Positions 2,646-60,778 of a stretch of 64,000 bases of DNA are shown here, one piece after another (the stretch's first letter is position 1; the number at the start of each line of letters is the position of its first letter). The stretch is from positions 1 to 64,000 of IMG/VR virus record IMGVR_UViG_3300042691_040495; one strand, written 5' to 3'. Below the pieces are notes generated by a model. It saw nothing but the letters and a program-made list of their open reading frames with translations, had not been told where the DNA came from and searched no databases. A program made the translations under genes and the position numbers. Origin of the DNA: a virus.

Positions 2646-3596
2646 ATGAATGATAATACTAATATAAATATAGATGCTAATTGCGATATTACAAGAACAC
2701 CAGAAAAAAGTCCTACACCTACGCGAACAGTAACTCGAACCCCAAAAATAACACGAACAGTAACAAAGTCATTAACGCCTACTCATACAATAACAAGATC
2801 ATCAACGCCAACAATTACTCCTACTAGAACAGTTACTCCCACAAGAACAGTTACAAGAACCGTAACTATTACACCAACCAGAACAATTACGCCGACACCA
2901 ACCATAACCCCTACAACAACCGTAACTCCTAGTATCACATTAACTCAAACTACTACAACTACACCAACAAATACTATTAGTCCTACTATAACGGTAACAC
3001 CAACACGCACAATAGCACCAACTCCAACTGCTTCTACTGTAAATAATTTCATTTTTGACTCTGATTACATCGCAATAACCTATCAATTTTTTGATGGTAA
3101 AGATTTAGATACTGCTACTAATTTAGCATATCCTAGATCACAAAATACATGTAATTATGTTGGATATTCATATAGTAATTTTATTGGAAATTCATCTAAT
3201 AAAATATTAACATGGTCTGGAGATAATACTGGCGCTAGCGGTTTTGAATCTGTTCTATTTGATGTTAATGCTTTTAAATATTTTTATTCTAATATTAATG
3301 AATTTGTTATAGATTGTAGATCGCATTGGTTTGGTACAACAGGATCTAATGCCGTTAGATTAGGAGTAGTATTATACAAAGGAGGGACAGTATCGCCAAC
3401 TCTTAATAACTATCAATTTGTAATTAATAATTATACTAATACATATTCATTTAGTACAAAATCTACTTTAATAACAGCTAGGTATAATAGTACTGATAAA
3501 AATCCTCAAAGAGTTGCAACATTCAAATATAATTTAATAACCAAAGAAGGACTAATAGATAATAACGATGTAATAACTGCTGTTGGATGCTATTAA
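2646..3596 (+). CDS. Thr/Pro-rich mucin-like protein with C-terminal globular domain
   Basis: About 120 aa of TPTRT repeats, then a DLDT...WSGDNTGASGFESV domain. Confidence 0.75.
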   Translation: MNDNTNINIDANCDITRTPEKSPTPTRTVTRTPKITRTVTKSLTPTHTITRSSTPTITPTRTVTPTRTVTRTVTITPTRTITPTPTITPTTTVTPSITLTQTTTTTPTNTISPTITVTPTRTIAPTPTASTVNNFIFDSDYIAITYQFFDGKDLDTATNLAYPRSQNTCNYVGYSYSNFIGNSSNKILTWSGDNTGASGFESVLFDVNAFKYFYSNINEFVIDCRSHWFGTTGSNAVRLGVVLYKGGTVSPTLNNYQFVINNYTNTYSFSTKSTLITARYNSTDKNPQRVATFKYNLITKEGLIDNNDVITAVGCY

Positions 3597-3599
3597 AAT

Positions 3600-3980
3600 A
3601 TGTTTAATTTTTATTCTACTAGATCATCAGAATGGAATAATGTTAGAAAACAACATCTTAAAAAAAATAATAGTTGCTGTGGATGCGGTAAAAAAGAAAA
3701 ACTAGAAGTTCATCATATTGAACCATATCATGTGAATCCTGATAGAGAATTAGATCCATCAAATTTAATAACATTATGTAAAAGTTGTCATTTTACTATT
3801 GGTCACTTAATGGATTGGAGCAGTTGGAATATTGACGTTATTAATGATTCTGGGGTGTATTTAAATAAGGTGAAAAATAGACCTTATCAAATAAAGGTTC
3901 AAAGCAATGAAAACTCTCATTTATTTGCTCGTTGCTTGCATAGGATATTCAATATGTTTAGCAGGAACGCGAGACCCTAA
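3600..3980 (+). CDS. HNH endonuclease
   Basis: CCGC...EVHHI...NLITLCKSCH. Confidence 0.9.
   Translation: MFNFYSTRSSEWNNVRKQHLKKNNSCCGCGKKEKLEVHHIEPYHVNPDRELDPSNLITLCKSCHFTIGHLMDWSSWNIDVINDSGVYLNKVKNRPYQIKVQSNENSHLFARCLHRIFNMFSRNARP
3854..3867 (+). promoter_or_regulatory. GGTGTAT motif (candidate phage promoter)
   Basis: ggtgtatttaaata, 47 nt before ATG 3907. Confidence 0.5.
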
Positions 3981-4653
3981 TATCAGTGATAAAAGTTATA
4001 TAGACTACGGATCCAAGTTTAAATGTGTTGTTCCACTGTGCGGAAAAGAGGACGATGGAGGCCCGTATTGTGCATCTGGCGTCGTTATTAAACCTAATTG
4101 GATTTTGACTGCTGCTCATGTGATTAAAAGAGCAAAAACGTGCAAAATCACCATTAATGATAAAGAAATACAAACTTCTGTATTTATTCCTCATAAAGAT
4201 TTTGAATCTAATAATTTTGGGTATTATGATATTGGTTTAATTTATTCTGATGAAAATATAGAATTAGATTTTTATCCTGAATTATATAAAGAAAATAATG
4301 AAGTGGGAAAAATTTGTGCATTATCTGGATATGGTATAACAGGAACTTTTGGAACAGGAGCCAAGATAGGAGATCATATTAAAAGAGCAGGATCTAATAG
4401 AATATCAGGAACAGATAGACATTTACTCATATGTGATCTAAAAGATCCTAATACTGTATTAGAATTTTTAATAGCAAGTGGAGATAGTGGTGGTGGTTTA
4501 TTTATAGATAAAAAATTAGCTGGTATAAATTCTTGTGTATTAGCTGTAGATGATCATCCAGATTCAACATACGGAGATGAAAGTGGCCATACTAGAATTA
4601 GTCAACATTTATCATGGATAGAAAGTACAATAAATGAGAATGAAAAAAAATAA
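3907..4653 (+). CDS. Trypsin-like (S1) serine protease with signal peptide
   Basis: Triad motifs LTAAHV, YDIG, GDSGGG; hydrophobic N-terminus. Confidence 0.92.
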   Translation: MKTLIYLLVACIGYSICLAGTRDPNISDKSYIDYGSKFKCVVPLCGKEDDGGPYCASGVVIKPNWILTAAHVIKRAKTCKITINDKEIQTSVFIPHKDFESNNFGYYDIGLIYSDENIELDFYPELYKENNEVGKICALSGYGITGTFGTGAKIGDHIKRAGSNRISGTDRHLLICDLKDPNTVLEFLIASGDSGGGLFIDKKLAGINSCVLAVDDHPDSTYGDESGHTRISQHLSWIESTINENEKK

Positions 4654-5560
4654 AGTTAGTCTTTTACCATATATTTCAGAAGAATTACACGGACTATCTG
4701 CTGATGGGCCGCAAGAATATGGTTGGGAATTAATTAAATTTAATATTCAGTCAATATGGAGTCAAGCAGAAGGGGACGGAGTAGTCGTGGCGGTTATTGA
4801 TACAGGTTGTGATCTTGACCACCCTGATTTGAAAGAAAATTTATTAGATGGTAAAAACTTCATAAATACTAGCAAAGCACCAGAGGATGATAATGGCCAT
4901 GGAAGCCATGTATCTTCTACAATAGCGGCACTAAACAATGGAACAGGTATGGTGGGAATAGCACCAAAAACAAAAATATTACCCGTCAAAGCATTAAATG
5001 CTGAAGGTAGCGGATCAATAGATGTAATTTCAAAAGCGGTTGTTTGGGCGGCTGATCAGGGTGTGGATTTTATTACAATGAGTTTAGGTTCACCAAATGG
5101 AGTAAGTTGCTTAGACGATGCTATAGGATACGCGAATAGTAAAGGATGTGTGGTATTTTGTGCCGCTGGAAATAGTGGAGAAAATGTCGATATCATGTAT
5201 CCTGCTAAATACGAACAAACAATAAGTATTGGAGCTATTGATGAAAATTTAGACAGAACCAGCTTTACTTGCAGTGGTGAATCGCTAGACTTTTTGGCTC
5301 CCGGACATAATATTTTAGGATGTATTCCTGGTGGAAGATATGCTCTAATGAGCGGAACAAGTATGAGCAATCCATTTGCGGTTGGTTGTGCTTCTTTGTT
5401 ATTAAGCTATAATAAAAAATACAAAAAATATCAATTAGAAAATTATAACGGATATATTGATACTTTTAAAACGTCATGTTTAGATTTAAATAATCCTAGA
5501 TACAAAGGTATTAAAAAATATCAAGGATATGGAATATTAAATCCATCTAAATTATTTTAG
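4634..5560 (+). CDS. Subtilisin-like (S8) serine protease
   Basis: VIDTG, NGHGSHV, AAGN, SGTSMS motifs. Confidence 0.96.
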   Translation: MRMKKNKVSLLPYISEELHGLSADGPQEYGWELIKFNIQSIWSQAEGDGVVVAVIDTGCDLDHPDLKENLLDGKNFINTSKAPEDDNGHGSHVSSTIAALNNGTGMVGIAPKTKILPVKALNAEGSGSIDVISKAVVWAADQGVDFITMSLGSPNGVSCLDDAIGYANSKGCVVFCAAGNSGENVDIMYPAKYEQTISIGAIDENLDRTSFTCSGESLDFLAPGHNILGCIPGGRYALMSGTSMSNPFAVGCASLLLSYNKKYKKYQLENYNGYIDTFKTSCLDLNNPRYKGIKKYQGYGILNPSKLF

Positions 5561-28932: not shown

Positions 28933-29529
28933 ATGGAAAGACAGTACGATAGTTTAGATACGTATATTAATTTAGCAAAAAAGACCATATCAAAATTTTG
29001 TCCTAAATTTTATAATGGACTTTCAGCAGAAATGTTAAAAAATAATGATGCGATATCGGATGTTGCAACAGCTATTATGTATGCTGATTGGAGATTTGAT
29101 CCGTCAAGAAAAGGAAAGAGCGGTCAAAATAAAACGCTTTACTCGTATCGTAATCAGTGTGCTATATGGGCAATTAAAACTTATGTTACCAATAAGTATA
29201 AGAAAAATTCTGATACTGTTAGTCTAGATTTTAATGTTAAAGAATCAGATCTCTCTATGCATTCAACATTACCGGACCACAGCATATCCGAACCAATTGA
29301 TATTTTGATTGAAAAAGAAGAAACAGCAAATCTAAAAGAAGGCATTAATGATTTACTAACAAATAGTAATCTGTCTGATAAACAACGAGAACAGATCAGA
29401 ATGTACTATCTTGAAAATCATACCCTATCATATATTGGTAAAAAATTTGGTGTCTCTAGAGAAGCAGTAAGACAGAATATTAAAAGAGCAATGGATATTA
29501 TTAGATCATATGATAACTGCCAAGTTTAA
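28933..29529 (+). CDS. Phage-encoded sigma-70 family factor
   Basis: Region 2-like WRFDP...YSY...IWAI; region 4 HTH LSDKQRE...TLSYIGKKFGVSREAVRQ. Confidence 0.85.
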   Translation: MERQYDSLDTYINLAKKTISKFCPKFYNGLSAEMLKNNDAISDVATAIMYADWRFDPSRKGKSGQNKTLYSYRNQCAIWAIKTYVTNKYKKNSDTVSLDFNVKESDLSMHSTLPDHSISEPIDILIEKEETANLKEGINDLLTNSNLSDKQREQIRMYYLENHTLSYIGKKFGVSREAVRQNIKRAMDIIRSYDNCQV

Positions 29530-34515: not shown

Positions 34516-34701
34516 ATGAATAATAGCGAATCACAAAATAGCTGGAGACTAATTTACACAAATAATACTGTTTTGGATTTATTTGAAAGCGAAGGAGTCA
34601 CTTCTACCATATACAATTTATTTGTAGCAGAAAATAAACAGGAATGTTTGGACCATATATCTTCTTTAAACTTATACTATAATAATGAAAATAATAGCTA
34701 A
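34516..34701 (+). CDS. Small hypothetical protein
   Basis: Operonic, between tail-like genes. Confidence 0.6.
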   Translation: MNNSESQNSWRLIYTNNTVLDLFESEGVTSTIYNLFVAENKQECLDHISSLNLYYNNENNS

Positions 34702-35887
34702 CACCACCAGTCCTAAAATGACTGTAACAAAAGCTTTTAATTTATTATCTTTAGAATATACCGCATATACTAGAGTTATAAACTCAACAGGCTCTGTATC
34801 ATATACAACAATTCAAGATAGAGTTTACACGTCCTATCCAACAGCAACATCTGTTACTGATTATCAAATGAATCTTATTACGATAGGTCAAAAATCAAAT
34901 ATTGATGAAAAAATTATATGGTCTTCTAGTAATACATCAGTAGCAACTGTGAATTCCAATGGTTATGTTACCCATGTATCAGATGGTAATTGCAATATAA
35001 CGGCATATATTGATGGAAAATCTTTATCTAAAACATTAAATTTTTCAACAACAAATATTGCCAGTACCTCATTTACTAGCTATGCAAATTCTTCTTTGGC
35101 ACAATATATTGTTGATACAATAAGTGCGAAGGTCTTAAATAAATCAGCATCGATAAGCAAAAATATTTTTTCATTACAAAATCACTCTCAAAGTATTTAT
35201 GTCAGAAATACCAGCTGTTGGGCATATGGACTAGATTTAACTTGTTTTAGTCCGTGGAATTCACTAGACGGACCACGCAGAGCCGGAACTCTTATAAGTC
35301 CTAGACACGTAATTTGCGCCCAACACTATCCTTTAACTGTTGGCACCACAATCAGATTCGTTCGTTTAGATAATACTATTGTTAATAAAACTATAACAGA
35401 TATATATAATTTATCTAATGCAGATATACAGATAGCACTATTAGATTCTGACGTTGGACCCGGAGTGTCGTTTGCTAAAATTTTACCAGAAAATTGGTTT
35501 AACTATCTTCCTTCAATATATTCAAACAGTACTACTCCTTATTGGAGAAATTATACTTTTGGATTGCCAGCTTTGTGTTTAGACCAAGAAGAAAAAGCTC
35601 TGATCCTTGATTTTGTCTCTTTCACTTTTAATACTCGAAATACTTCTTTCTCTATTCCTAATAATAGTAAAAATGCAGAATTTTATGAAAATATTATTGT
35701 CGGGGATAGTGGTAATCCAGAATTTTTAATAATTAATAATACATTAGTCATATTATCTACTTGGTTAACCATAGGTTCTGGGCCATTTATAACATTCTAT
35801 AAAACACAAATTAATGATGCTATGTCACAATTAGGAGGAAACTATCAATTAACAGAAATTGATTTGAGTTCTTTTAATACTTATTAA
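34685..35887 (+). CDS. Ig-like (Big_2) domain fused to a trypsin-like serine protease, probably virion-displayed
   Basis: WSSSNTSVATVNSNG; GTLISPRHVICAQH, ADIQIALL, GDSGNP. Confidence 0.8.
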   Translation: MKIIANTTSPKMTVTKAFNLLSLEYTAYTRVINSTGSVSYTTIQDRVYTSYPTATSVTDYQMNLITIGQKSNIDEKIIWSSSNTSVATVNSNGYVTHVSDGNCNITAYIDGKSLSKTLNFSTTNIASTSFTSYANSSLAQYIVDTISAKVLNKSASISKNIFSLQNHSQSIYVRNTSCWAYGLDLTCFSPWNSLDGPRRAGTLISPRHVICAQHYPLTVGTTIRFVRLDNTIVNKTITDIYNLSNADIQIALLDSDVGPGVSFAKILPENWFNYLPSIYSNSTTPYWRNYTFGLPALCLDQEEKALILDFVSFTFNTRNTSFSIPNNSKNAEFYENIIVGDSGNPEFLIINNTLVILSTWLTIGSGPFITFYKTQINDAMSQLGGNYQLTEIDLSSFNTY

Positions 35888-35888
35888 T

Positions 35889-35902
35889 GGTGTAAAATAA
35901 TC
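35889..35902 (+). promoter_or_regulatory. GGTGTAA variant motif
   Basis: In the 30-bp gap before the holin-like gene. Confidence 0.6.
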
Positions 35903-35917
35903 TTATGGAGAAAACAT

Positions 35918-36241
35918 ATGATTAAACCTGGTTATAAAACAAGCGAATTTTGGTTTACTTTAGTAAGTTTTATATTTAGTGGAGCTTATTTGATTGGAAT
36001 ATTAGAAAGCTTTAGTCAAAAAGAAGACTTAATACAAGAAACAAGTAGGGGTATAGAAGCAGCAATATTGATTATTGGTCAATTAACAGTATTATTTAAA
36101 TATATTAAAGGAAGAACAGATCTTAAAAAGACTTGGTGGAGCACAGCAACACCAGAAGAAAGAAAAACCGCCAATAGGCGAAGCTCTAAATCCAAAACTA
36201 AAAAGAAAATTACAAAACCAATTCAGCCCAAAGTTGAGTAG
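35918..36241 (+). CDS. Holin-like membrane protein
   Basis: KPGYKTSEFW start, two TM segments and a basic C-terminal tail. Confidence 0.6.
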   Translation: MIKPGYKTSEFWFTLVSFIFSGAYLIGILESFSQKEDLIQETSRGIEAAILIIGQLTVLFKYIKGRTDLKKTWWSTATPEERKTANRRSSKSKTKKKITKPIQPKVE

Positions 36242-36253
36242 ACAAACTCTATC

Positions 36254-36267
36254 GGTGTATTACTATA
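36254..36267 (+). promoter_or_regulatory. GGTGTAT motif (candidate phage promoter)
   Basis: ggtgtattactata, intergenic. Confidence 0.65.
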
Positions 36268-36298
36268 TATAGGGCTTCTTTTAGGAAAGGTATTATAT

Positions 36299-36739
36299 AT
36301 GCCAGATGCAGCGTCAATAGATTCTATCAAAGTACAAATTGATAATTTAATCAATCAAGTAAAATCTTCACTTGGAGATGTAAAATCTGTTGCTATTACC
36401 CAAGCATGGAAGATTTTGCAACTTGCTGTCGCCGAAACTGTTCAAGTTCTAGAACAAACTTCTGGAGATTTACCGGGATCAGATAAAAAAACCATGGCTA
36501 TGGATTATTTATCAAAATTTTATGACAGTGTTTTTATTGTTATAGATATTCCTATGGTTCCTAGTTTTATGCAAATTATAATTCGTAAATACATTAAAAT
36601 ATTCTTGATGGCATTAGTTAGTTCTAGCATTGATGCTATGGTAACAACTTTTAGACAAGTTGGAGTTTTCCCATCAAAAACAACAGTAGTTTCACAATCA
36701 ATTAAACCCAAGGCTAAAAAAACGAGGAAAAAGAAATGA
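36299..36739 (+). CDS. Hypothetical (membrane-associated) protein
   Basis: LPGSDKK motif, hydrophobic helix, basic tail. Confidence 0.65.
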   Translation: MPDAASIDSIKVQIDNLINQVKSSLGDVKSVAITQAWKILQLAVAETVQVLEQTSGDLPGSDKKTMAMDYLSKFYDSVFIVIDIPMVPSFMQIIIRKYIKIFLMALVSSSIDAMVTTFRQVGVFPSKTTVVSQSIKPKAKKTRKKK

Positions 36740-37119
36740 ATTACACAGAAAGTTTCGATCAATTTGCCAGCAGAGTAACACCCACAGATTTGGCTTTATA
36801 TGCTGGAGTAGGAATTGTTTTATGGATCTTGTTCAAAGACAGGCTTAGTCCTGTTCAAAAGTTTTTAGCAGATGTATTTGGTGGCTTAAAGTCAAAAATA
36901 AACCATGGATCATCCGTTGTTCCTGTTGTTGTTCCAGATGTTGCTCCTGTTGCAGTGTCCAAGGAAACTAAAGAAGATAATTTTTTTAAGTTAATTGTTT
37001 CTTGGAAGCAAACCAGAGACCTAGCAGTTAAGAGCGGTTGTGATGAAGCTGTTAAGGTTGCTGATCAAATGTTTCCATTTTTAAGTCCCACAGTTTGCTC
37101 AAAGGAAAAAAGTGTATGA
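36736..37119 (+). CDS. Single-TM protein
   Basis: LALYAGVGIVLWILF. Confidence 0.7.
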   Translation: MNYTESFDQFASRVTPTDLALYAGVGIVLWILFKDRLSPVQKFLADVFGGLKSKINHGSSVVPVVVPDVAPVAVSKETKEDNFFKLIVSWKQTRDLAVKSGCDEAVKVADQMFPFLSPTVCSKEKSV

Positions 37120-37616
37120 ATCCCAAACTTAAAACAGGTCTTTTAATATTTGCTCTTGCTCTATTAGGTATCGGAATACTTAAACCCGATTTGAGTTTCT
37201 TTAATAAGCCAGTATCACCATCAGCTGTTGTTGAATTGGACGTTAAAGAGCCTGAGTCACCAGAATTGAAAGAGAAAGCAGACGCTGTGGTCAAAGCATT
37301 ATCTGCTAACTCTGATCGTAAAACTGACGGATTACGATTAGCCTATCTGTATAATGACATGGCAACTTTAGTTGGCCTTGACGGAAAAGATGAAGTTATT
37401 AAAAATACCGAAGAAATTAGACAAGCCAATAAATTAGTTGGTTTAATGCTAAGATTAGATATCAAAGGTAAGTACGAAGACCTTCCAGAATCTGCTCAAG
37501 CTTTGGTATTAACAGCAATTGGAGACGATAATGTTTTATTAAACGATGATCTTAGAGCAAAAGCTGTTGAAGGTTTCAAAGCTTTATCCTGGGCCTGTTT
37601 ACAAGGAAGCAAATAA
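37116..37616 (+). CDS. Membrane-anchored or secreted helical protein
   Basis: Signal anchor LLIFALALLGIGIL; likely start at 37116. Confidence 0.7.
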   Translation: MNPKLKTGLLIFALALLGIGILKPDLSFFNKPVSPSAVVELDVKEPESPELKEKADAVVKALSANSDRKTDGLRLAYLYNDMATLVGLDGKDEVIKNTEEIRQANKLVGLMLRLDIKGKYEDLPESAQALVLTAIGDDNVLLNDDLRAKAVEGFKALSWACLQGSK

Positions 37617-38542
37617 TGCCAAGATATTCACCACAAGAATTATACGATAATTATCGCAACGGTTTTAGCGGATGCTTGTGGGAACAGCACGTTTTCGACC
37701 ATTTGATGGAAAATAGTAAATATCCTTTGTTTGGTGATGCTAGCAAAAAAATTAAAAGTAGTGGTAAGGGCAAATTATCAACACCATATAAAAGTGTATT
37801 AAAATTTGAAAAAAGCCCTTATAATGAAAGACAAACAACAGGAGATTGTGTATCTCATGGAACACGAAATGCATGTGACGTTAGTAGAGCAGTAGAGATT
37901 GATGTAAATGGAGAGAAAGAAGCTTGGGTTGCTAAAGGAGCAACAGAAGCAATTTATGGTGCTCGCGGTCACGGCGGAGAAGGAATGAGTTGCTCAAGAG
38001 CTGCCGAGTTTGTTAGCAAGAACGGTGGCATATTATTACGCCAAAACTATAAAGGCGTTGTAGATTTTAGCAAATATAATGGTAATCTTGGTGCCGGATG
38101 GGGCGCGAGAGGATTGCCGGATAAAGTTATTGATCTAGCAAATGACCATCAGATCAGAACAACTAGTTTAATAAAAACAGTAGAAGAAGCAAGAGATGCT
38201 TTAGCTAATGGTTATGGTTTAGCAGTATGCTCTAATTATGGATTTAGTAACAAAAGAGATAAAAAGGGCATAGCTAATACTAGCGGTAGCTGGGGCCATT
38301 GTATGGCTTGGATAGCTTGTGATGATACTGGTAGCGAGCCACTATTCTTAGTACAAAATAGTTGGGGCAAATGGAATGATGGAGGTCATCCAGAATGGGG
38401 GCCTATACCTGACGGTAGTTTTTTAATACGAGCCGACGTAGCAGCAGGGATGCTTTCACAGAATGGAAGTTATGCGTTTAGTAATTTTGACGGATTCCCT
38501 GTACAAAAGCTACCATCTTACGGTTTTGAAGACTATCTATAA
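37616..38542 (+). CDS. Papain-like (C1) cysteine protease
   Basis: QTTGDCV (Gln/Cys), WGHCM (His), QNSWG (Asn). Confidence 0.88.
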   Translation: MPRYSPQELYDNYRNGFSGCLWEQHVFDHLMENSKYPLFGDASKKIKSSGKGKLSTPYKSVLKFEKSPYNERQTTGDCVSHGTRNACDVSRAVEIDVNGEKEAWVAKGATEAIYGARGHGGEGMSCSRAAEFVSKNGGILLRQNYKGVVDFSKYNGNLGAGWGARGLPDKVIDLANDHQIRTTSLIKTVEEARDALANGYGLAVCSNYGFSNKRDKKGIANTSGSWGHCMAWIACDDTGSEPLFLVQNSWGKWNDGGHPEWGPIPDGSFLIRADVAAGMLSQNGSYAFSNFDGFPVQKLPSYGFEDYL

Positions 38543-38572
38543 TATAGTGGCCTAAAAGCTAACCTTAAGTTT

Positions 38573-38586
38573 GGTGTATTATATTT
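38573..38586 (+). promoter_or_regulatory. GGTGTAT motif (candidate phage promoter)
   Basis: ggtgtattatattt, intergenic. Confidence 0.65.
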
Positions 38587-38605
38587 ATACCTTTAGGGTT
38601 ATACT

Positions 38606-38800
38606 ATGAAACTTTTAGATAGAATTGCTTTAAACAATCTTTTACGAATAATAAGAGAACTTATTATACGAATGGTTGACTTTTTTGAAAAACAAAAAAA
38701 ACCAGTCAAACCAACACCAAAACCTAAACCCGACAGACCTCGCCCTTTGAAAAATATTATAGACTTGATACCTGTTCCATGGAGAACAAAAGATGAATAA
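38606..38800 (+). CDS. Small basic Pro-rich protein
   Basis: Amphipathic helix plus PKPKP. Confidence 0.6.
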   Translation: MKLLDRIALNNLLRIIRELIIRMVDFFEKQKKPVKPTPKPKPDRPRPLKNIIDLIPVPWRTKDE

Positions 38801-39140
38801 AATACTATTACCAATTTTAGCAGTTGCTATGATATTTGGGTCATATGGATATCATGGGTCAACAACTTCCGCAGTAACTCTTGTGGGGGGAATTGTTAAG
38901 GCTCAACATACTGAAAGTGTGAAAAAATACAAAAGAAAAGACTGTCCAATATGCAAAGGCAAAGGATACTATATTAGTGGTGATGGTATTGAAAAAGTTA
39001 ACTGCGGATATTGTATTCCTGATAAGAGTGACACTCCAAAAAATCAATTACCAAACACATATCCAAAAGTTATTACTCATCCTCCAGTAACTATTCAACA
39101 AAATTGCCCAAATGGCGTTTGTCCAATTCCTAAAAAATAA
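38793..39140 (+). CDS. Secreted Zn-finger-like protein
   Basis: Signal peptide; CPICKGKG...CGYC; C-terminal CPNGVCP. Confidence 0.7.
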   Translation: MNKILLPILAVAMIFGSYGYHGSTTSAVTLVGGIVKAQHTESVKKYKRKDCPICKGKGYYISGDGIEKVNCGYCIPDKSDTPKNQLPNTYPKVITHPPVTIQQNCPNGVCPIPKK

Positions 39141-39151
39141 AGGTATAAAAA

Positions 39152-39550
39152 ATGGACGATAATCTTAGAGAAAAATTAAAAGCTATCGCAGAAAAAGTGT
39201 TAAAACAAGCCAATGTGCCAAATGATGAAAAATTTGGTAGTGTTATTGCTATACTAATGATGATTAGTATAATACTTACAGTAATTAGAGTATTACAAGA
39301 ATGCAATAAAAATAAAACACAAGGCATGACATCAGAAAATAAACAATCTCTCTATGCTGAAAACATTAAATCTTATAGTAAAAAACGAGGTTGGTTTACT
39401 AGACTAAGAATAAAAAGAATTCTTAAAAGAGAACTGACCTCAGAAGAATATAATAAATACGGCATTAAATTAACAGAAGCATTGTTAGATATAGGAGAAA
39501 CCCTCAAGGATGATGAAGTCGCAACTCTAATGGAGGCAGCAAATGTTTAG
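39152..39550 (+). CDS. Single-TM protein
   Basis: VIAILMMISIILTVI. Confidence 0.7.
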   Translation: MDDNLREKLKAIAEKVLKQANVPNDEKFGSVIAILMMISIILTVIRVLQECNKNKTQGMTSENKQSLYAENIKSYSKKRGWFTRLRIKRILKRELTSEEYNKYGIKLTEALLDIGETLKDDEVATLMEAANV

Positions 39551-39794
39551 TATATTAATCTGGTGTGTATATGGTATTTTTGTTGGCAGCATAGCAAAAA
39601 GCATAGTTCCAGGAGAAGAAAATTTTGGTTTTGTTAAAACAGTAGCACTAGGAGTATGTGGCTCCTATATGGGTGGCGCACTATTATATTTACTGGGTAA
39701 GTATGAATCGGTGTCTCCTGCTGGATTGTTCATGGGAGTCGCCGGTGCTGTTTTAGCATTGGTGCTTTATAACAAACTACAATCATCAAAATAA
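39543..39794 (+). CDS. GlsB/YeaQ/YmgE (transglycosylase-associated) membrane protein
   Basis: GIFVGSIAKSIVPG, LGVCGSYMGG, GVAGAVLAL. Confidence 0.88.
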   Translation: MFSILIWCVYGIFVGSIAKSIVPGEENFGFVKTVALGVCGSYMGGALLYLLGKYESVSPAGLFMGVAGAVLALVLYNKLQSSK

Positions 39795-55372: not shown

Positions 55373-56409
55373 TTACATATTTTAGAAGCTCCTCATATAA
55401 TACGCATAATATGTGTGAACAGCAGTATTTTTCAGAATACGTTCTAGGGTGGCGAGGGTTGAGCGGACAAAAGGCAGACAAAGGAACAATCTGTCACAAA
55501 GTTCTTGAAATTTTGGCAGTTATGAAAAAAGCAGAGCAGGATGGCCAGAGTACTATTAATGATGATTTGATTGGGGAATTAGATATTAATAATTATAATC
55601 TGGATATTATAATAGAAAAAGTATACTCATATTATACCCTTAATGCACAACATCATAAGTGGTCACCAAAAGACCATAAAGACTGTAAAAGCTGGGTTTA
55701 TAAAGCGATAGAATTTAATAATGGGATGTTTGATCCTAGGAATAGGAATATTTTATGTCCAGAACAGCATTTTGATTTTGAGATTAAAAAACCATGGGCC
55801 AAATATAATTACGATATTGGTAATGGTGAAAAATTAGAAGGTAATTTAGCATTAAAAGGCACCATAGATCTTATAACACTTGTTAATGACTCTACAATTG
55901 AAATAATAGATTGGAAAACCGGTCGTAGGCTAGATTGGGCTACAGGAGAAGAAAAAACCCAAGAAAAATTAGAAAAAGATCCACAATTAAAAATATACCA
56001 TTATGCTATTAAACATTTATATCCTCATATTGAAAATATAATTTTTTCTATCTATTTCATCAATGATGGTGGTCCGTTTTCTATTTGTTTCCATGATTCA
56101 GATTTAAAATCGACCGAAGATATGTTAAGACAAAAATTTGAAGCAATTAAAAGTACAAAAAAACCTAGATTAAATAAAAGCTGGATGTGTAGTAAATTGT
56201 GTCACTTTGGCAAAACAACATTTGAGGGAACTCATATTCAACCAATAGAAGAATATAGGGACGGTCAGGTATGTAGAGTTGGTCAAACGATGACAAAGTG
56301 CGAGCAAATAAAACATGATCTTGATCTTTATGGTATCGACACTACAATGGGTTTGTACAAGAACAAGAATCATTCCTTTGGAAGTTACAAAGCTCCTGGA
56401 TCACTATGA
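55366..56409 (+). CDS. PD-(D/E)XK exonuclease (AddB/Cas4-like)
   Basis: GTICH, EQHF, GTIDL, IIDWKTG, QLKIY; Cys residues at both ends. Start may be ATT 55366; first ATG is 55411. Confidence 0.88.
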   Translation: MIITYFRSSSYNTHNMCEQQYFSEYVLGWRGLSGQKADKGTICHKVLEILAVMKKAEQDGQSTINDDLIGELDINNYNLDIIIEKVYSYYTLNAQHHKWSPKDHKDCKSWVYKAIEFNNGMFDPRNRNILCPEQHFDFEIKKPWAKYNYDIGNGEKLEGNLALKGTIDLITLVNDSTIEIIDWKTGRRLDWATGEEKTQEKLEKDPQLKIYHYAIKHLYPHIENIIFSIYFINDGGPFSICFHDSDLKSTEDMLRQKFEAIKSTKKPRLNKSWMCSKLCHFGKTTFEGTHIQPIEEYRDGQVCRVGQTMTKCEQIKHDLDLYGIDTTMGLYKNKNHSFGSYKAPGSL

Positions 56410-58274
56410 CAAAAACATATTCTGTGCTTCATGCTCACTCCCACTATAGTCTTTTGGATGGGATTAGTAAGCCTTATCAAATAGCCGATAGGTGCTATAA
56501 TACCGGTATTAAGACCTGTGCTATCACTGATCACGGGACAATATCAGGATGCGTACAATTTTATCAAGCCTTAAAAGCCAAAAAAATAAAACCCATACTG
56601 GGTTGCGAATTATATATCTCTAATAGAGACTCACATATTAAAGAAAAAGACAACAATAATCTGAGTCACTTTCTGGTTCTTGCTAAAAATTTAGCTGGTT
56701 GGAAAACATTGGTTAAAATTATATCAGAAACAAACAGAGTTGAAAATTTCTATCATAAGCCAAGAATTAGTTTCGACAGACTTGCACCAATGTTAGATGG
56801 TAATATCATCGGATTTTGCGGCCATCTTGGTTCTACACTTTCTGATATAGTAGAAGAAAATAGTTCAGACTATATTAGCAAATCTTTGTCATTCATTTCG
56901 CACATGAAAGAAATCTTTGGCGAAAACAATTTCTTTCTAGAAGCTCAGTTGATGGATCAAGAATTTAATCCCAAACAAAAAGACATGACCGATATTATGA
57001 GATCTTTGGGAATAAAAAGTCAAACAAAAGTTATAGCAACTCCAGATGCTCATTATTGTGAAAAGAAAGATGCGATTGATCAAAGAATTCTATTGTGCAA
57101 CAATTTAAAAACAACGCTTATTGACATAAATAAAAAACTGCTATCCAATGAGGACGTGCCAATGAGTTGTTTTTTCAAATCAGACAATTTTCATATACCA
57201 GATCCAGAAGAGATGATATCTTGGCACACAGCAGAAGAAATAGAAAATACACAATATATTGACTCATTATGTGAAGAATATTCTATATTAAGCAAACCGC
57301 TACTTCCTGCTTTTAAATGTCCTAATGGCGACAATCCAGACGAATATTTAAGACAACTATGCAGAAATGGTTGGAGACAAAAGGTTATAAATCATATTCC
57401 AGAATCAGAGCATGAAAAATATGCTGACAGAATTAAATTTGAGTTGAGCATTTTACAGGGTGCTGGTTTATCCAGTTACTTTTTAATAGTTCAAGATATA
57501 GTAAACTATGTAAAGGAGAGCGGATGGCTTCCTGGTCCCGGCAGAGGAAGTGCTGCTGGATGCTTAGTATCGTACCTTATCGGAATAACAGATATTAATC
57601 CAATAAAATATAATTTGCTATTTGAAAGATTCTATAATGAAGGTAGAAATACAGCAGATCATATATCTATGCCAGATATCGATGTTGACGTTCCTATTAA
57701 CAAAAGAGAAAATATTATCGAATACATAAAAAATAAATATGGTTCTGATAAAGTATCTCAGATGATAACATTTAATACAATGAAAGGTCGAGGAGCATTA
57801 AAAGAAGTACTAAGAGTTTATGACAATATTAGTTTTGAAGAAATGAATAGAATAACTAAATTTATACCAGATGAAGCAAAAATTGCAGACGAACTTCAAG
57901 AGATGAAAGAAGATACAGGTGAGGCATCTATTATTAGATGGGCTTTAGAAAACAATGTTGACAAACTCAAAGAATGGTGCTATATTAGTGAGGATGGCTC
58001 CCTGTCCGGTCCTCTTGCTAAGAGATTTGAGCAGGCAATCAGGCTTGAGGGAACTAAATCTAATCAATCAAAACATGCGGCTGGTGTAGTTATTAGTAGT
58101 GAAAATCTAAGTTCTGTATGTCCTATGGTATATGATTCAAAAAACAAACAATCAATAGCAGGGATGGAAATGCAAGACTTAGAAGGTTTGGGGTTAATCA
58201 AATTTGATATTCTTGGTGTTGCTATGCTTGATAAAATAATGACTATATCAGACATTCTATCTAAAGGAGAATAA
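56406..58274 (+). CDS. dnaE: DNA polymerase III alpha, N-terminal part (PHP + palm + thumb)
   Basis: HAHSHYSLLDG, TDHG, DAHY, GRGSAAG, FERF, PDIDVD, HAAG, KFDILG. Confidence 0.96.
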   Translation: MTKTYSVLHAHSHYSLLDGISKPYQIADRCYNTGIKTCAITDHGTISGCVQFYQALKAKKIKPILGCELYISNRDSHIKEKDNNNLSHFLVLAKNLAGWKTLVKIISETNRVENFYHKPRISFDRLAPMLDGNIIGFCGHLGSTLSDIVEENSSDYISKSLSFISHMKEIFGENNFFLEAQLMDQEFNPKQKDMTDIMRSLGIKSQTKVIATPDAHYCEKKDAIDQRILLCNNLKTTLIDINKKLLSNEDVPMSCFFKSDNFHIPDPEEMISWHTAEEIENTQYIDSLCEEYSILSKPLLPAFKCPNGDNPDEYLRQLCRNGWRQKVINHIPESEHEKYADRIKFELSILQGAGLSSYFLIVQDIVNYVKESGWLPGPGRGSAAGCLVSYLIGITDINPIKYNLLFERFYNEGRNTADHISMPDIDVDVPINKRENIIEYIKNKYGSDKVSQMITFNTMKGRGALKEVLRVYDNISFEEMNRITKFIPDEAKIADELQEMKEDTGEASIIRWALENNVDKLKEWCYISEDGSLSGPLAKRFEQAIRLEGTKSNQSKHAAGVVISSENLSSVCPMVYDSKNKQSIAGMEMQDLEGLGLIKFDILGVAMLDKIMTISDILSKGE

Positions 58275-58275
58275 A

Positions 58276-58455
58276 ATGAAAAAACAGTTTCATGAATTGG
58301 CTGTTGGTCAAAAGTTTACAGTTAATGGCGTAGAATATATTAAAACAGACGAGGTTAGAATTAGTTGTTGCAAAAGTATCAATTGCTATGCTTCAGCCGA
58401 TGCTAATCAAAAAGGACATTTTCCAGGAAATACAGAAGTAACAGTAGATGGCTAA
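58276..58455 (+). CDS. 59-aa Cys-containing protein (not in ORF track)
   Basis: AAGGAG RBS; MKKQFHELAVGQKF...ISCCKSINC...TVDG; fills the gap between dnaE-N and the exonuclease. Confidence 0.7.
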   Translation: MKKQFHELAVGQKFTVNGVEYIKTDEVRISCCKSINCYASADANQKGHFPGNTEVTVDG

Positions 58456-59146
58456 TATACAAAAAATTTGCGTTTTTGATTTAGAAACGGACGGAGCAAA
58501 CCCTGACCTCTGCAGTCCAGTTCAGATTGCAGCGGTCATGGTTGATCCGATGAAGTTAGAAATCATAGAAGATTCAGAGTTTAATATAACGGTTAAACCT
58601 CTTATATTAGAAGAAAAGCCCGACTATTCATACGCCGACTCTGACGTACTAGACTTTCATGCTAAAGTTAGAGGAAGTACAAAAGATAAAATATTAGAGT
58701 CTTGGAAAGAATACCAAAAACAAGAACATGGTTGGAATATGTTTATCTCATACCTAGAGATGTATCATATTCGATCAAATAGTAAAAAATCTTGTTTTAG
58801 TGCTCCAATAGCAGCAGGATATAACATTAATAGATTTGATCTCAGAATAATAGAACGTCTAAGTCAAAAGTATAACAATCTGAACAAAGAAGGACGCTCT
58901 TCATTATTTTATCCAAGAGATGTAATCGATATTATGAATCTTGTATTCTACTGGTTCGAAGGCAATAATGAACTGAAAAATTATACATTAGATAATCTAA
59001 GAGACTATCTTGGTATAGATAAAGAGGGGTCTCACGATGCTCTTAAGGATGTTAAGGATACAGCTAATATATTAATTAGATTTCTTAAACTACATAGAAA
59101 TCTATCAAATAAAATTAAATTTAAATCATCATTTATTGGAACATAA
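58448..59146 (+). CDS. dnaQ: DEDDh 3'-5' exonuclease (DnaQ/epsilon-like)
   Basis: VFDLETDG, GYNINRFD, SHDALKD. Confidence 0.92.
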   Translation: MANIQKICVFDLETDGANPDLCSPVQIAAVMVDPMKLEIIEDSEFNITVKPLILEEKPDYSYADSDVLDFHAKVRGSTKDKILESWKEYQKQEHGWNMFISYLEMYHIRSNSKKSCFSAPIAAGYNINRFDLRIIERLSQKYNNLNKEGRSSLFYPRDVIDIMNLVFYWFEGNNELKNYTLDNLRDYLGIDKEGSHDALKDVKDTANILIRFLKLHRNLSNKIKFKSSFIGT

Positions 59147-59152
59147 TTTATA

Positions 59153-60778
59153 ATGGGTCAGGTTTTTACATTTGAGTGTGGTTGCAAATTCCCTGTCATA
59201 GATAATAATGAAAAATTTCCTAAAATAGATTTTTCACCTAAGCTTTCTAACATTAGTCTAACTTGTCAAAAAACTTGGGATTTAATATCTCTTGGAAATA
59301 CCAAAGGGTGTTTTCAGCTTGAGTCCAGACTTGGACAAACAATGGCCAGGAAATTGAAGCCTCAAAATATAGAACAACTATCTGGTCTTATTAGCATTCT
59401 TAGACCAGGATGCTTAGAGGCTATGAGAGATGGTAAAAGCGTATCTAATCATTATATTGATAAAAAAAATGGATTAGCGTCCATAGATTATTTCCATCCT
59501 GCTCTTGAGCCAATCTTAAAAGATACATATTCTGAGATGATATATCAAGAACAAGCCATGTCAATAGCCAAAGAATTAGCTGGGTTTAATCTGAAAGAGG
59601 CAGATGATCTTAGAAAAGCTATCGGCAAAAAACAAGCTGATAAGATGGCTAAGGTCAAAGAAAAATTTATTAATGGTTCAAAAAACAAAGGACTAATAAA
59701 CGAACAAGAAGCTGAACAAATATTCGAATGGATTGAGAAAAGTCAAAGATATTTGTTTAATGCGAGTCATTCCATCAGCTATGCCATGAATGCATATTTA
59801 TCAGCATATGCTAAAGCTCATTTTCCACGAGTATTTTTTGCATCTTATTTAAGGTTTGCCAAAGACAAAATTGATCCTCAACAGGAAATAAAAGAACTTG
59901 TGAGAAATGCTATTGAAATGGATATAGATATCAGAATACCTGATTTTAGAAATCTTAATGAGCTATTTATACTGAAAGATAAACAAATATTTTTTGGATT
60001 AACAGATATTAAAGGTGTTGGACAATCGGTTTATAATAAGATAATAAATCTGACAAAAGATCAAGACGTACAATCTATGTCATGGCCACAAATACTATCA
60101 ATTGTATTACTTAATATTAATTCGATAGCAAGCAAAGCATTAATTAGTTCTGGTGCATTTGATTATTTTAAGAAAAACAGATCAGAATTATTATTTGAAT
60201 ATGAGATATGTAGTGGATTAACAAAAAAAGAATTGACATCTTTTAACGACTATGTTTCATTAAAGAGCGATGCTGGTGTTCTGGAAATTATGAGACATAT
60301 TTATGATAATACTAAATTAATAAAAGGAAGAAAAGAAATAATAAATAATTGCATACAGTCATTGATGCGTCCGCCGTATTCTTTGGTCGATAAAATTGAA
60401 TGGTTGTCCGATTCAGAAAATAGTCTACTAGGAGTAGGAATTACGTGCTCGAAATTAGATGTTTATGATGTTAGTTCAGCAAACTGTAATTGTAAAACTT
60501 TCAAGACTTCCTTGCTGAAAGAAAACATTATTCTAGTAGGAGAAATATCTAATATAAATGTGACAAAAACAAAAAATGGTAAAAACCCAGGATTAGAAAT
60601 GGCTTTTGTGACTATAGAAGATCAATATGGAACTCTGGATACTGTTGTATTTTTTCCAGAAATATTTTCACAATATAGATCATATTTATTTATAGGCAGC
60701 ATACTGGTATTTGCTGGTAATCGCAGCAAAGCAAAGGATGGTCTAATTGTGGAAAAGTGTTTTAATCCTGTTTCTTGA
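59153..60778 (+). CDS. dnaE: DNA polymerase III alpha, C-terminal part (fingers + HhH + OB)
   Basis: FQLES, RPG, YQEQ, ADDLRKAIGKK, FNASHS, IKGVG, MAFVTIED. Confidence 0.95.
   Translation: MGQVFTFECGCKFPVIDNNEKFPKIDFSPKLSNISLTCQKTWDLISLGNTKGCFQLESRLGQTMARKLKPQNIEQLSGLISILRPGCLEAMRDGKSVSNHYIDKKNGLASIDYFHPALEPILKDTYSEMIYQEQAMSIAKELAGFNLKEADDLRKAIGKKQADKMAKVKEKFINGSKNKGLINEQEAEQIFEWIEKSQRYLFNASHSISYAMNAYLSAYAKAHFPRVFFASYLRFAKDKIDPQQEIKELVRNAIEMDIDIRIPDFRNLNELFILKDKQIFFGLTDIKGVGQSVYNKIINLTKDQDVQSMSWPQILSIVLLNINSIASKALISSGAFDYFKKNRSELLFEYEICSGLTKKELTSFNDYVSLKSDAGVLEIMRHIYDNTKLIKGRKEIINNCIQSLMRPPYSLVDKIEWLSDSENSLLGVGITCSKLDVYDVSSANCNCKTFKTSLLKENIILVGEISNINVTKTKNGKNPGLEMAFVTIEDQYGTLDTVVFFPEIFSQYRSYLFIGSILVFAGNRSKAKDGLIVEKCFNPVS

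Follow-up and report, generated by a model that had tools for sequence, protein, structure and literature searches.

A conserved block of membrane-protein genes around a papain-fold peptidase as a candidate protease-based lysis module of uncultured lake-water phages

The window, a stretch of 64,000 nucleotides corresponding to positions 1 to 64,000 of the IMG/VR virus record IMGVR_UViG_3300042691_040495, is the start of one viral contig of 96,681 bp, the GC content of which is 31%. The contig is linear according to its IMG/VR class, is approximately 70% complete by the CheckV estimate, and comes from sequencing runs of lake-water metagenomes. The interval 35918-39794 of the window is filled by nine consecutive plus-strand open reading frames (ORFs), named A to I, in which a cysteine peptidase, E, lies among small membrane-associated proteins (Table 1). 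An earlier note, made from the sequence alone, had described the interval as a lysis-like cassette of nine membrane-related genes with an intact papain-type protease in the place of an endolysin. We give about an even chance to the reading that the block is a protease-based lysis module, which stands in for a muralytic endolysin.

Table 1. Positions in the window of the nine genes, the GGTGTA motifs of the block, and the pair of protease genes near the start of the window
Feature	Position	Strand	Description
Protease pair	3854..5560	+	GGTGTAT at 3854; S1 protease 3907-4653; overlapping S8 protease 4634-5560
GGTGTA	35889..35894	+	24 nucleotides upstream of A; candidate promoter element
Gene A	35918..36241	+	107 amino acids; two hydrophobic segments, K/R-rich C-terminal tail; holin-like by shape only
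GGTGTAT	36254..36260	+	45 nucleotides upstream of B; TA-rich run after the motif
Gene B	36299..36739	+	146-residue membrane protein with hydrophobic core and basic tail; best holin candidate
Gene C	36736..37119	+	127 amino acids; N-terminal anchor; two conserved cysteines (C102, C121); in 77/80 related loci
Gene D	37095..37616	+	N-terminal signal anchor and five-helix bundle; translationally coupled to E
Gene E	37616..38542	+	308-residue papain-fold (C1-like) cysteine peptidase without signal peptide
GGTGTAT	38573..38579	+	33 nucleotides upstream of F
Gene F	38606..38800	+	64 amino acids; amphipathic N-terminus, Pro/Lys-rich middle; least conserved member
Gene G	38793..39140	+	Signal-like N-terminus; DnaJ-type zinc finger CxxCxGxG...CxxC; ends CPNGVCP
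Gene H	39152..39550	+	132 amino acids; single-pass, hydrophobic residues 30-48; charged C-terminal domain
Gene I	39543..39794	+	83-residue GlsB/YeaQ (Transgly_assoc) protein with three hydrophobic segments

The score of E, 16.5 bits against the Pfam family PF00112 (Peptidase_C1; E 0.009) is below the gathering score of 20.7, and no chain in the PDB matched it by sequence at E < 0.1. The identity of E as a papain (C1) fold is settled by its AlphaFold model, which was calculated from an alignment of 47 sequences and has a predicted local distance difference test score (pLDDT) of 94. Foldseek comparison of the model to the PDB yielded 249 matches with E <= 0.001. The top ones, to xylellain, the cathepsins B, K, and L, papain, and actinidin, reach a probability of 1.0 and E values as low as 6e-9. 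In 47 diverse homologues, which share 32-53% identity with E, residues C78, H228, and W250 do not vary, and at least 90% of the sequences retain Q73, N248, and S249. E is thus predicted to have a two-lobed papain fold with a Cys-His dyad, an oxyanion Gln, and an orienting Asn. The ORFs, the model, and the conservation of Q73, C78, H228, and N248 bear out the intact C1 protease of the earlier note.

E shares with the papain family (MEROPS C1, PF00112; xylellain, PDB 3ois) the two-lobed fold and the Gln, Cys, His, and Asn residues in register, including the Asn-Ser-Trp-Gly motif. However, the identity in structural alignments is only 11-17%, the Pfam score is below the threshold, and E has neither a secretory signal nor a recognisable I29 propeptide. 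Instead, it carries an N-terminal extension of 75 residues, which is conserved and well folded in the model; zymogen structures align to E over slightly longer stretches than the mature ones. E also differs from papain-family enzymes in being encoded by a phage, within an operon of membrane proteins, and in being split from or, in its homologues, fused to a membrane anchor.

The peptidase has many relatives, with 2066 at E <= 0.001 in a database clustered at 90% identity, the best 120 of which are 81-95% identical to E, and 1461 clusters in a library clustered at 50%. Over 80 related IMG/VR loci, the identity of E is 81-97%, compared to 86-97% for the neighbouring ribonucleotide reductase (RNR). 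Several homologues, including P0121, P0122, and P0129, are 650-1200 amino acids long and contain Intein_splicing and LAGLIDADG domains. The inteins are located at the catalytic Cys (approximately residue 77) and directly after the catalytic His (approximately residue 230). Inteins and homing elements usually enter highly conserved, indispensable genes.

The gene order is identical in all 68 related loci that hold all eight compared genes (F was left out), so that the loss of synteny, which the earlier note had named as evidence against its proposal, was not observed. In nearly all loci D ends at the start of E, so that the coupling of the two genes is retained. The conserved start codon of D is probably the ATG at 37116. 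The identity of A-D and G-I across the 80 loci ranges from 33 to 100% and is mostly 45-80%, and the flanks of the block are variable, with fibre-like genes upstream and a glycosyltransferase downstream. These comparisons indicate that the block is a real, conserved module. Insertions of approximately 2.4 kb and 1 kb are found directly after the peptidase gene, in the E/F gap of loci L074 and L036 and in the E/G gap of L152 and L154.

Members of the peptidase family were found in lake viromes, in phages of at least two lineages whose genomes measure approximately 60 kb and 130-240 kb. In an alignment-based scan, the peptidase was detected at 35-43% identity in about 49 loci of phages with genomes of approximately 56-63 kb and a median GC content of 60%, many of which are complete genomes with terminal repeats. 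The operon of this 60-kb group encodes, in order, a 110-residue membrane protein, a Peptidase_S8 subtilase (E 3e-50), a small membrane protein, a D-like anchored protein, the C1 peptidase, and a G-like Cys-rich protein. No similarity between the orthologues of B and the 110-residue membrane protein heading the 60-kb operon was detected by hhalign. The S8 gene lies 0.64-2.1 kb upstream of the C1 gene in 38/43 loci of the group. Cys-rich HNH-like genes are positioned between the D-like gene and the peptidase gene in two members (L110:5355-6008 and L128:5427-5975).

Peptidase_S8 is present in 20/20 C1-bearing genomes examined from both lineages. The window encodes it as part of a linked pair of S1 and S8 proteases (Table 1), which the earlier note overlooked. 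The S1 protease matches the Pfam Trypsin family (E 2e-15) and has a signal with a lipobox-like LVAC sequence, and the S8 protease matches Peptidase_S8 (E 3.8e-52) and has no signal; its best NCBIfam similarity, below the cut-off, is to the mycosins of type VII secretion systems. Upstream of the pair is a gene (2646-3596) for a protein whose first approximately 130 residues are nearly pure Thr/Pro/Arg repeats and resemble mucin, adjoined by a gene for an HNH endonuclease (3600-3980). The window phage encodes three classes of proteases that are or could become extracytoplasmic, with the same GGTGTA motif upstream.

The homologues of E indicate where the peptidase may act. In about 14 of the 150 best family representatives, the protein is longer and a hydrophobic segment at the N-terminus precedes the peptidase, and in many of these fused homologues the anchor is followed by an acidic or proline-rich linker. 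According to the positive-inside rule, the fused homologues fit an orientation with the N-terminus inside and the C-terminus outside. Nine of the fused representatives contain a detectable D-like domain, which D of the window matches with E of 4e-4 to 3e-9. The BLASTP alignment of D to one of them, P0152 (E 2e-6), ends in the common motif 'WACLQ.S'. The C-terminus of P0152 has the sequence CxxC...CPNPRCP, like that of G; this likeness is at motif level only by BLASTP (E 0.06). Two other homologues, P0126 and P0264, have the N-terminal twin-arginine (Tat) motifs RRxFL (NRRHFL and SRRDFL). A 913-residue fusion of anchor, D, and peptidase is encoded by a phage with a GC content of 53% (L093:5992-8733), where the next gene (L093:8746-9732) codes for a Cys-rich protein of 328 residues, the lipoprotein signal of which is clear (FVGC).

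Because of the anchor fusions and Tat variants, an extracytoplasmic site of action is the most likely one for the peptidase. D, E, and possibly G look like separated parts of one membrane-anchored, outward-facing enzyme. We infer that D and E are in contact in the window phage; a predicted complex between E and the soluble portion of D received a score of 0.14. The same fusions and Tat variants favour the proposal of the earlier note that the block is an envelope-disruption or remodelling module, whereas the 'protein-rich envelope' that it assigned to the host is just one of several possibilities.

The high conservation of the peptidase and its inteins could also be explained if it were a protease of virion morphogenesis, maturing proheads or tails, which merely happens to be sited among membrane genes. 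The anchor fusions and Tat variants, however, put the family outside the cytoplasm, and no recognisable structural gene ever adjoins the peptidase gene. Its neighbours in the 60-kb group are nuclease, methylase, and recombinase genes. Furthermore, the contig encodes a separate ClpP-type protease. We consider a morphogenesis function so improbable as to be close to negligible, and a prohead protease was rejected on account of the extracytoplasmic variants and the lack of structural-gene neighbours.

The membrane proteins around E include candidates for a holin. The shape of A, a small protein with two predicted transmembrane helices and a charged C-terminus, is that of a possible class II holin, but A has no family match in Pfam, PHROGs, or NCBIfam. 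The two-helix protein that the earlier note called holin-like thus resembles a holin in shape only. In three orthologues of A (L153:4216-4716, L167:4130-4615, and L172:4142-4624), the basic tail is replaced by an HHH_3 domain of the ComEA-like helix-hairpin-helix (HhH) type (E 6e-17), and both membrane segments are retained. This suggests that these orthologues are membrane proteins that bind nucleic acid. B matches Holin_LLH (PF09682, holin superfamily 6) with 17.6 bits (E 0.005), below the cut-off of 24.9, and two of its 19 orthologues reach E of approximately 0.004 on this profile. B also matches phrog_6918, annotated as 'holin', with E 1e-4, as do four of the 19 orthologues, the best with E 7e-8.

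The third holin candidate is I, the membership of which in the GlsB/YeaQ/YmgE family (PF04226) rests on a score of 31.7 bits, above the cut-off of 25.3 (E 1.8e-7), and on its hydrophobic segments; the match to NF007771 (E 1.4e-11) is below the cut-off of that model. Cellular members of the family are stress-response membrane proteins with an unknown mechanism, and a holin role is only a database proposal; in TCDB the family is entered as a putative holin family. The earlier note had named both this GlsB/YeaQ protein and the secreted zinc-finger protein G, and the cysteine motif of the latter is conserved as well: C51, C54, C71, and C74 are conserved in at least 90% of the sequences, the terminal CPNGVCP less so. 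In the alignment of G (A4), 18 of the 95 scanned members match phrog_12574, a family of unknown function, the best match being that of G of the window (E 2.5e-6). The model of D, an anchor followed by the five-helix bundle, has a pLDDT of 85, and a fold search with it gave no match at E <= 0.001. No lipobox was found in the proteins of the block, so that a two-component spanin cannot be assigned there, though C and D have anchors. The sole lipobox-like signal is that of the S1 protease at 3907.

The lysis of host cells by tailed phages is described as the work of a holin and a muralytic endolysin, complemented by a spanin in diderm hosts. We searched for a conventional endolysin using six-frame hidden Markov model (HMM) searches (E <= 0.01) of the contig and of five relatives that are 95-100% complete (G001-G005). 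None of 16 Pfam families of peptidoglycan-hydrolysing or peptidoglycan-binding domains had a match in the contig or the five relatives; the families include Phage_lysozyme, Amidase_2, Amidase_3, SLT, Peptidase_M23, M15_3, M15_4, GH108, GH19, GH25, NlpC/P60, CHAP, Muramidase, Phage_lysozyme2, and PG_binding_1. Twelve of the families were also searched for in 14 complete genomes of the 60-kb group, which share the peptidase, and had zero matches there. As a positive control, PF04226 was recovered at 39645-39779, within I. The negatives for GH108, GH19, and Muramidase are weak because no control genome gave a match to these families. E itself does not match any muralytic family in Pfam, PHROGs, or NCBIfam. 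The absence of lysozyme, amidase, and M23 peptidase, which had been reported for the window, thus extends to the whole contig. A canonical holin-endolysin-spanin cassette elsewhere in the genome had been named in the earlier note as evidence that would speak against its proposal; the search of the contig, the five relatives, and the 14 genomes of the 60-kb group found no canonical endolysin family.

It is possible that the proteases are accessory lysis factors: a muralytic enzyme that escaped recognition would cut the glycan or peptide of the wall, and the C1, S8, and S1 proteases would strip proteins tethering or covering it (of the Lpp/OmpA type or of an S-layer), replacing spanins. This would agree with the normal activity of C1, S8, and S1 enzymes, which is to cut proteins, with the lack of a spanin-like lipoprotein pair in the block, and with the presence of three protease classes, one of them with a lipobox-like signal. 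Moreover, the divergence that hides the structural genes of these phages from HMMs might hide a muralytic enzyme, too. Nevertheless, the muralytic and wall-binding families are without a match in the 19 near-complete genomes, which belong to two unrelated lineages (12 families in the 60-kb group), and enzyme domains in general are well recognised in the window genome, with strong scores for RNR, polymerase, glycosyltransferases, ClpP, and S8. We therefore regard the accessory role as rather unlikely.

The three GGTGTA motifs of the block, which the earlier note had pointed out as driving it, occupy its only three intergenic gaps and divide it into the units A, B-C-D-E, and F-G-H-I. The longer form GGTGTAT occurs 11 times in the window, compared to 5.7 +/- 2.1 expected, and ten of the 11 sites are on the plus strand. 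In the loci of relatives, GGTGTA is present upstream of A in 45/73, of B in 26/75, of F in 30/55, and of C in 1/76 cases, and never upstream of D, E, or I; the ratio of the two strands is 406 to 55. GGTGTA may thus be a promoter element. Outside the block, GGTGTAT precedes not only the S1/S8 pair but also RNR, at a distance of 147 nucleotides and within the gene before it, and PhoH, at a distance of 54 nucleotides, and therefore the motif cannot be called late-specific.

The position of the motif before RNR and PhoH suggests expression preceding the late phase, which would suit a non-lytic envelope system. In such a system, a periplasmic protease complex could remodel the surface of the infected cell, for instance by receptor destruction or a block of superinfection, or it could process exported or glycosylated proteins of the phage. 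The extreme conservation of the peptidase and its inteins are as expected for a constrained core function, the genome contains a large glycan-assembly region and genes for Thr/Pro-rich proteins, and the HhH domain of the A orthologues points in the same direction. However, a non-lytic function leaves the absence of a recognisable lysis enzyme from the 19 near-complete genomes unexplained, and lysins that depend on a holin are classically signal-less enzymes with a holin-like gene next to their own, as here. In our judgement, this alternative is rather improbable.

The phage belongs to an uncultured and very divergent lineage. No blastn or tblastn match to GenBank phages was obtained for the block, for A, B, E, or G, or for the distant homologue P0183. 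The nearest near-complete relative, 131 kb long and 95% complete, is collinear with the contig, and remoter relatives with direct terminal repeats have genomes of 205-244 kb. The relatives with complete genomes measure 158, 205, 238, and 244 kb. Recognisable genes of the contig encode a split DNA polymerase, RNR, PhoH, dCMP deaminase, many glycosyltransferases, ClpP, a PAP2 phosphatase, and a protein with sigma-70 region 4; the gene for a sigma-like protein is at 28933-29529. The DNA polymerase is divided between two genes (56406-60778 of the window), each of which matches half of phrog_405, with an ORF of 232 amino acids between them. Almost no matches to PHROGs were obtained for the large minus-strand genes or the presumed structural genes of the contig and the 131-kb relative. 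The giant ORFs, of 5642 amino acids in the 131-kb relative (G004; 105203-122131, minus strand) and of 2622 and 2143 amino acids in the contig (G000 69990-84265), have no PHROG match. The gene directly before the block (34685-35887) codes for a variable, fibre-like protein in which a Big_2 domain was recognised (E 6e-9). The C-terminal half of this protein contains the trypsin-like motifs CAQH, DIQIALLD, and GDSGNP, found by eye; it has no match to a Pfam protease.

The genes for ClpP, sigma-70 region 4, and GlsB/YeaQ point to a bacterial host and no finer. Taxonomic hints from a scan of genome contigs were limited to a 2.6-kb contig in an alphaproteobacterial metagenome-assembled genome (MAG), a viral-looking contig in a 'bacterium' MAG, and a weak match to Anaerolineales. 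A match to a GT9 heptosyltransferase (E 4e-5) is weak and too thin for calling the host diderm. Phages with this peptidase family span GC contents of 30-66%, which implies many hosts.

If the host had no conventional peptidoglycan and a proteinaceous envelope, as in the earlier guess of a member of Planctomycetota, proteases would be both sufficient and necessary for release. The lack of a detected muralytic enzyme, the presence of three or more proteases that are directed to the envelope or may be exported, and the trypsin-like motifs of the variable fibre-like protein, at motif level only, would be in line with such a host. However, the span of GC contents and the occurrence in at least two unrelated lineages indicate many hosts rather than one odd clade, and the alphaproteobacterial-MAG contig of 2.6 kb and the viral-looking 'bacterium' contig are the sole taxonomic hints bearing on it. 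Planctomycetota are, moreover, now known to have peptidoglycan. We found no evidence supporting the guess and hold a proteinaceous-envelope host in general to be highly unlikely.

The even chance given to protease-based lysis is based on the anatomy of the cassette and on precedents among endolysins and proteases. The anatomy comprises a signal-less E amid small membrane proteins, three genes after the holin candidate B, together with the anchored and Tat variants in other phages, the strict synteny, the lack of any other recognised lytic enzyme, and the co-occurrence with S8. In the mechanism that we propose, D would be anchored by its N-terminus in the cytoplasmic membrane, with its helical domain at the outer surface, and G would be an exported zinc-finger partner. 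The signal-less catalytic subunit E would build up in the cytoplasm until holin-like proteins, most likely B and perhaps I or A, let it pass through the membrane, and would dock to D. E could then function as the lytic enzyme in the periplasm or wall, along with the S8 subtilase and the exported S1 protease, replacing a muralytic endolysin. Candidate substrates are the peptide bridges of peptidoglycan or the proteins that tether or cover the wall.

The proposed arrangement can be compared to several known systems. SAR (signal-anchor-release) endolysins such as P1 Lyz resemble the fused homologues in having an N-terminal membrane tether and a catalytic domain outside. However, the anchor (D) and enzyme (E) of the window phage are separate, D adds a five-helix domain without a known fold, and SAR enzymes are muramidases. 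Another comparison is with the CHAP, NlpC/P60, Amidase_5, and LysA N4/N5 domains (PMC3314691, PMC10318531), which are papain-like Cys-His lytic enzymes of phages, without signals and encoded beside holins. Unlike E, these domains have small folds of the NlpC/CHAP type or C39-like folds, usually accompanied by wall-binding domains, and the CHAP and NlpC/P60 HMMs have no match in the window genome. Endolysins with only peptidase activity are known from mycobacteriophages, such as L5 gp10, and the N5 domain of LysA belongs to the papain family (PMC3314691); the papain-like superfamily contains many peptidoglycan hydrolases (PMC10318531). The serine proteases L1 and L5 of Lysobacter, which belong to the alpha-lytic protease family, lyse bacteria by cutting peptidoglycan bridges (PMC12250508). 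They provide a precedent for general-type proteases, such as the S1/S8/C1 set, acting on peptidoglycan; however, they are secreted weapons of a predatory bacterium rather than phage lysis proteins, and they belong to families other than C1 and S8. The literature that we searched contained no endolysin of the C1 family proper, no phage lysis based on C1 or S8, and no paper on this phage group.

Several observations weigh against protease-based lysis. Enzymes of the C1 family are not known to cut peptidoglycan. The holin assignments are weak, the DNA-binding type of HhH domain on three orthologues of A is odd for a simple holin, and there is no lipoprotein or spanin pair in the block. The high conservation of E and the inteins are atypical for an endolysin, a class of proteins that usually varies quickly, and the block may not be late-expressed, given that its motif is shared with RNR and PhoH. 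The contig is only approximately 70% complete. In a lineage so divergent that PHROGs recognises almost none of its structural genes, a muralytic enzyme could also be encoded in a form that is not recognisable.

The features that are new here are the single-polypeptide forms of D and the peptidase, the Tat variants, the inteins at catalytic sites, the absence of matches to the wall-hydrolase and wall-binding families searched, and the co-occurrence with S8. The only recognisable candidate lytic enzymes in these phages are proteases. A broader possibility, which we put forward as tentative and somewhat doubtful, is that two unrelated lineages of abundant freshwater phages are released by proteolysis only, with a holin-released, membrane-docked C1 peptidase and a subtilase, joined by a trypsin-like lipoprotein in the window lineage, replacing endolysin and spanins. 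If this were true, proteolysis-only release would be a lysis pathway of a kind that has not been described for tailed phages. As a lysis cassette, the block would contain a catalytic subunit of a new class, and were lysis achieved by proteolysis alone, the cassette would be of a new kind. Should the C1 enzyme cut the peptides of peptidoglycan, it would represent a new class of endolysin catalytic domain, of interest as an enzybiotic. If it cuts proteins, it would reveal a new route through the bacterial envelope and provide information about the walls of abundant uncultured freshwater hosts.

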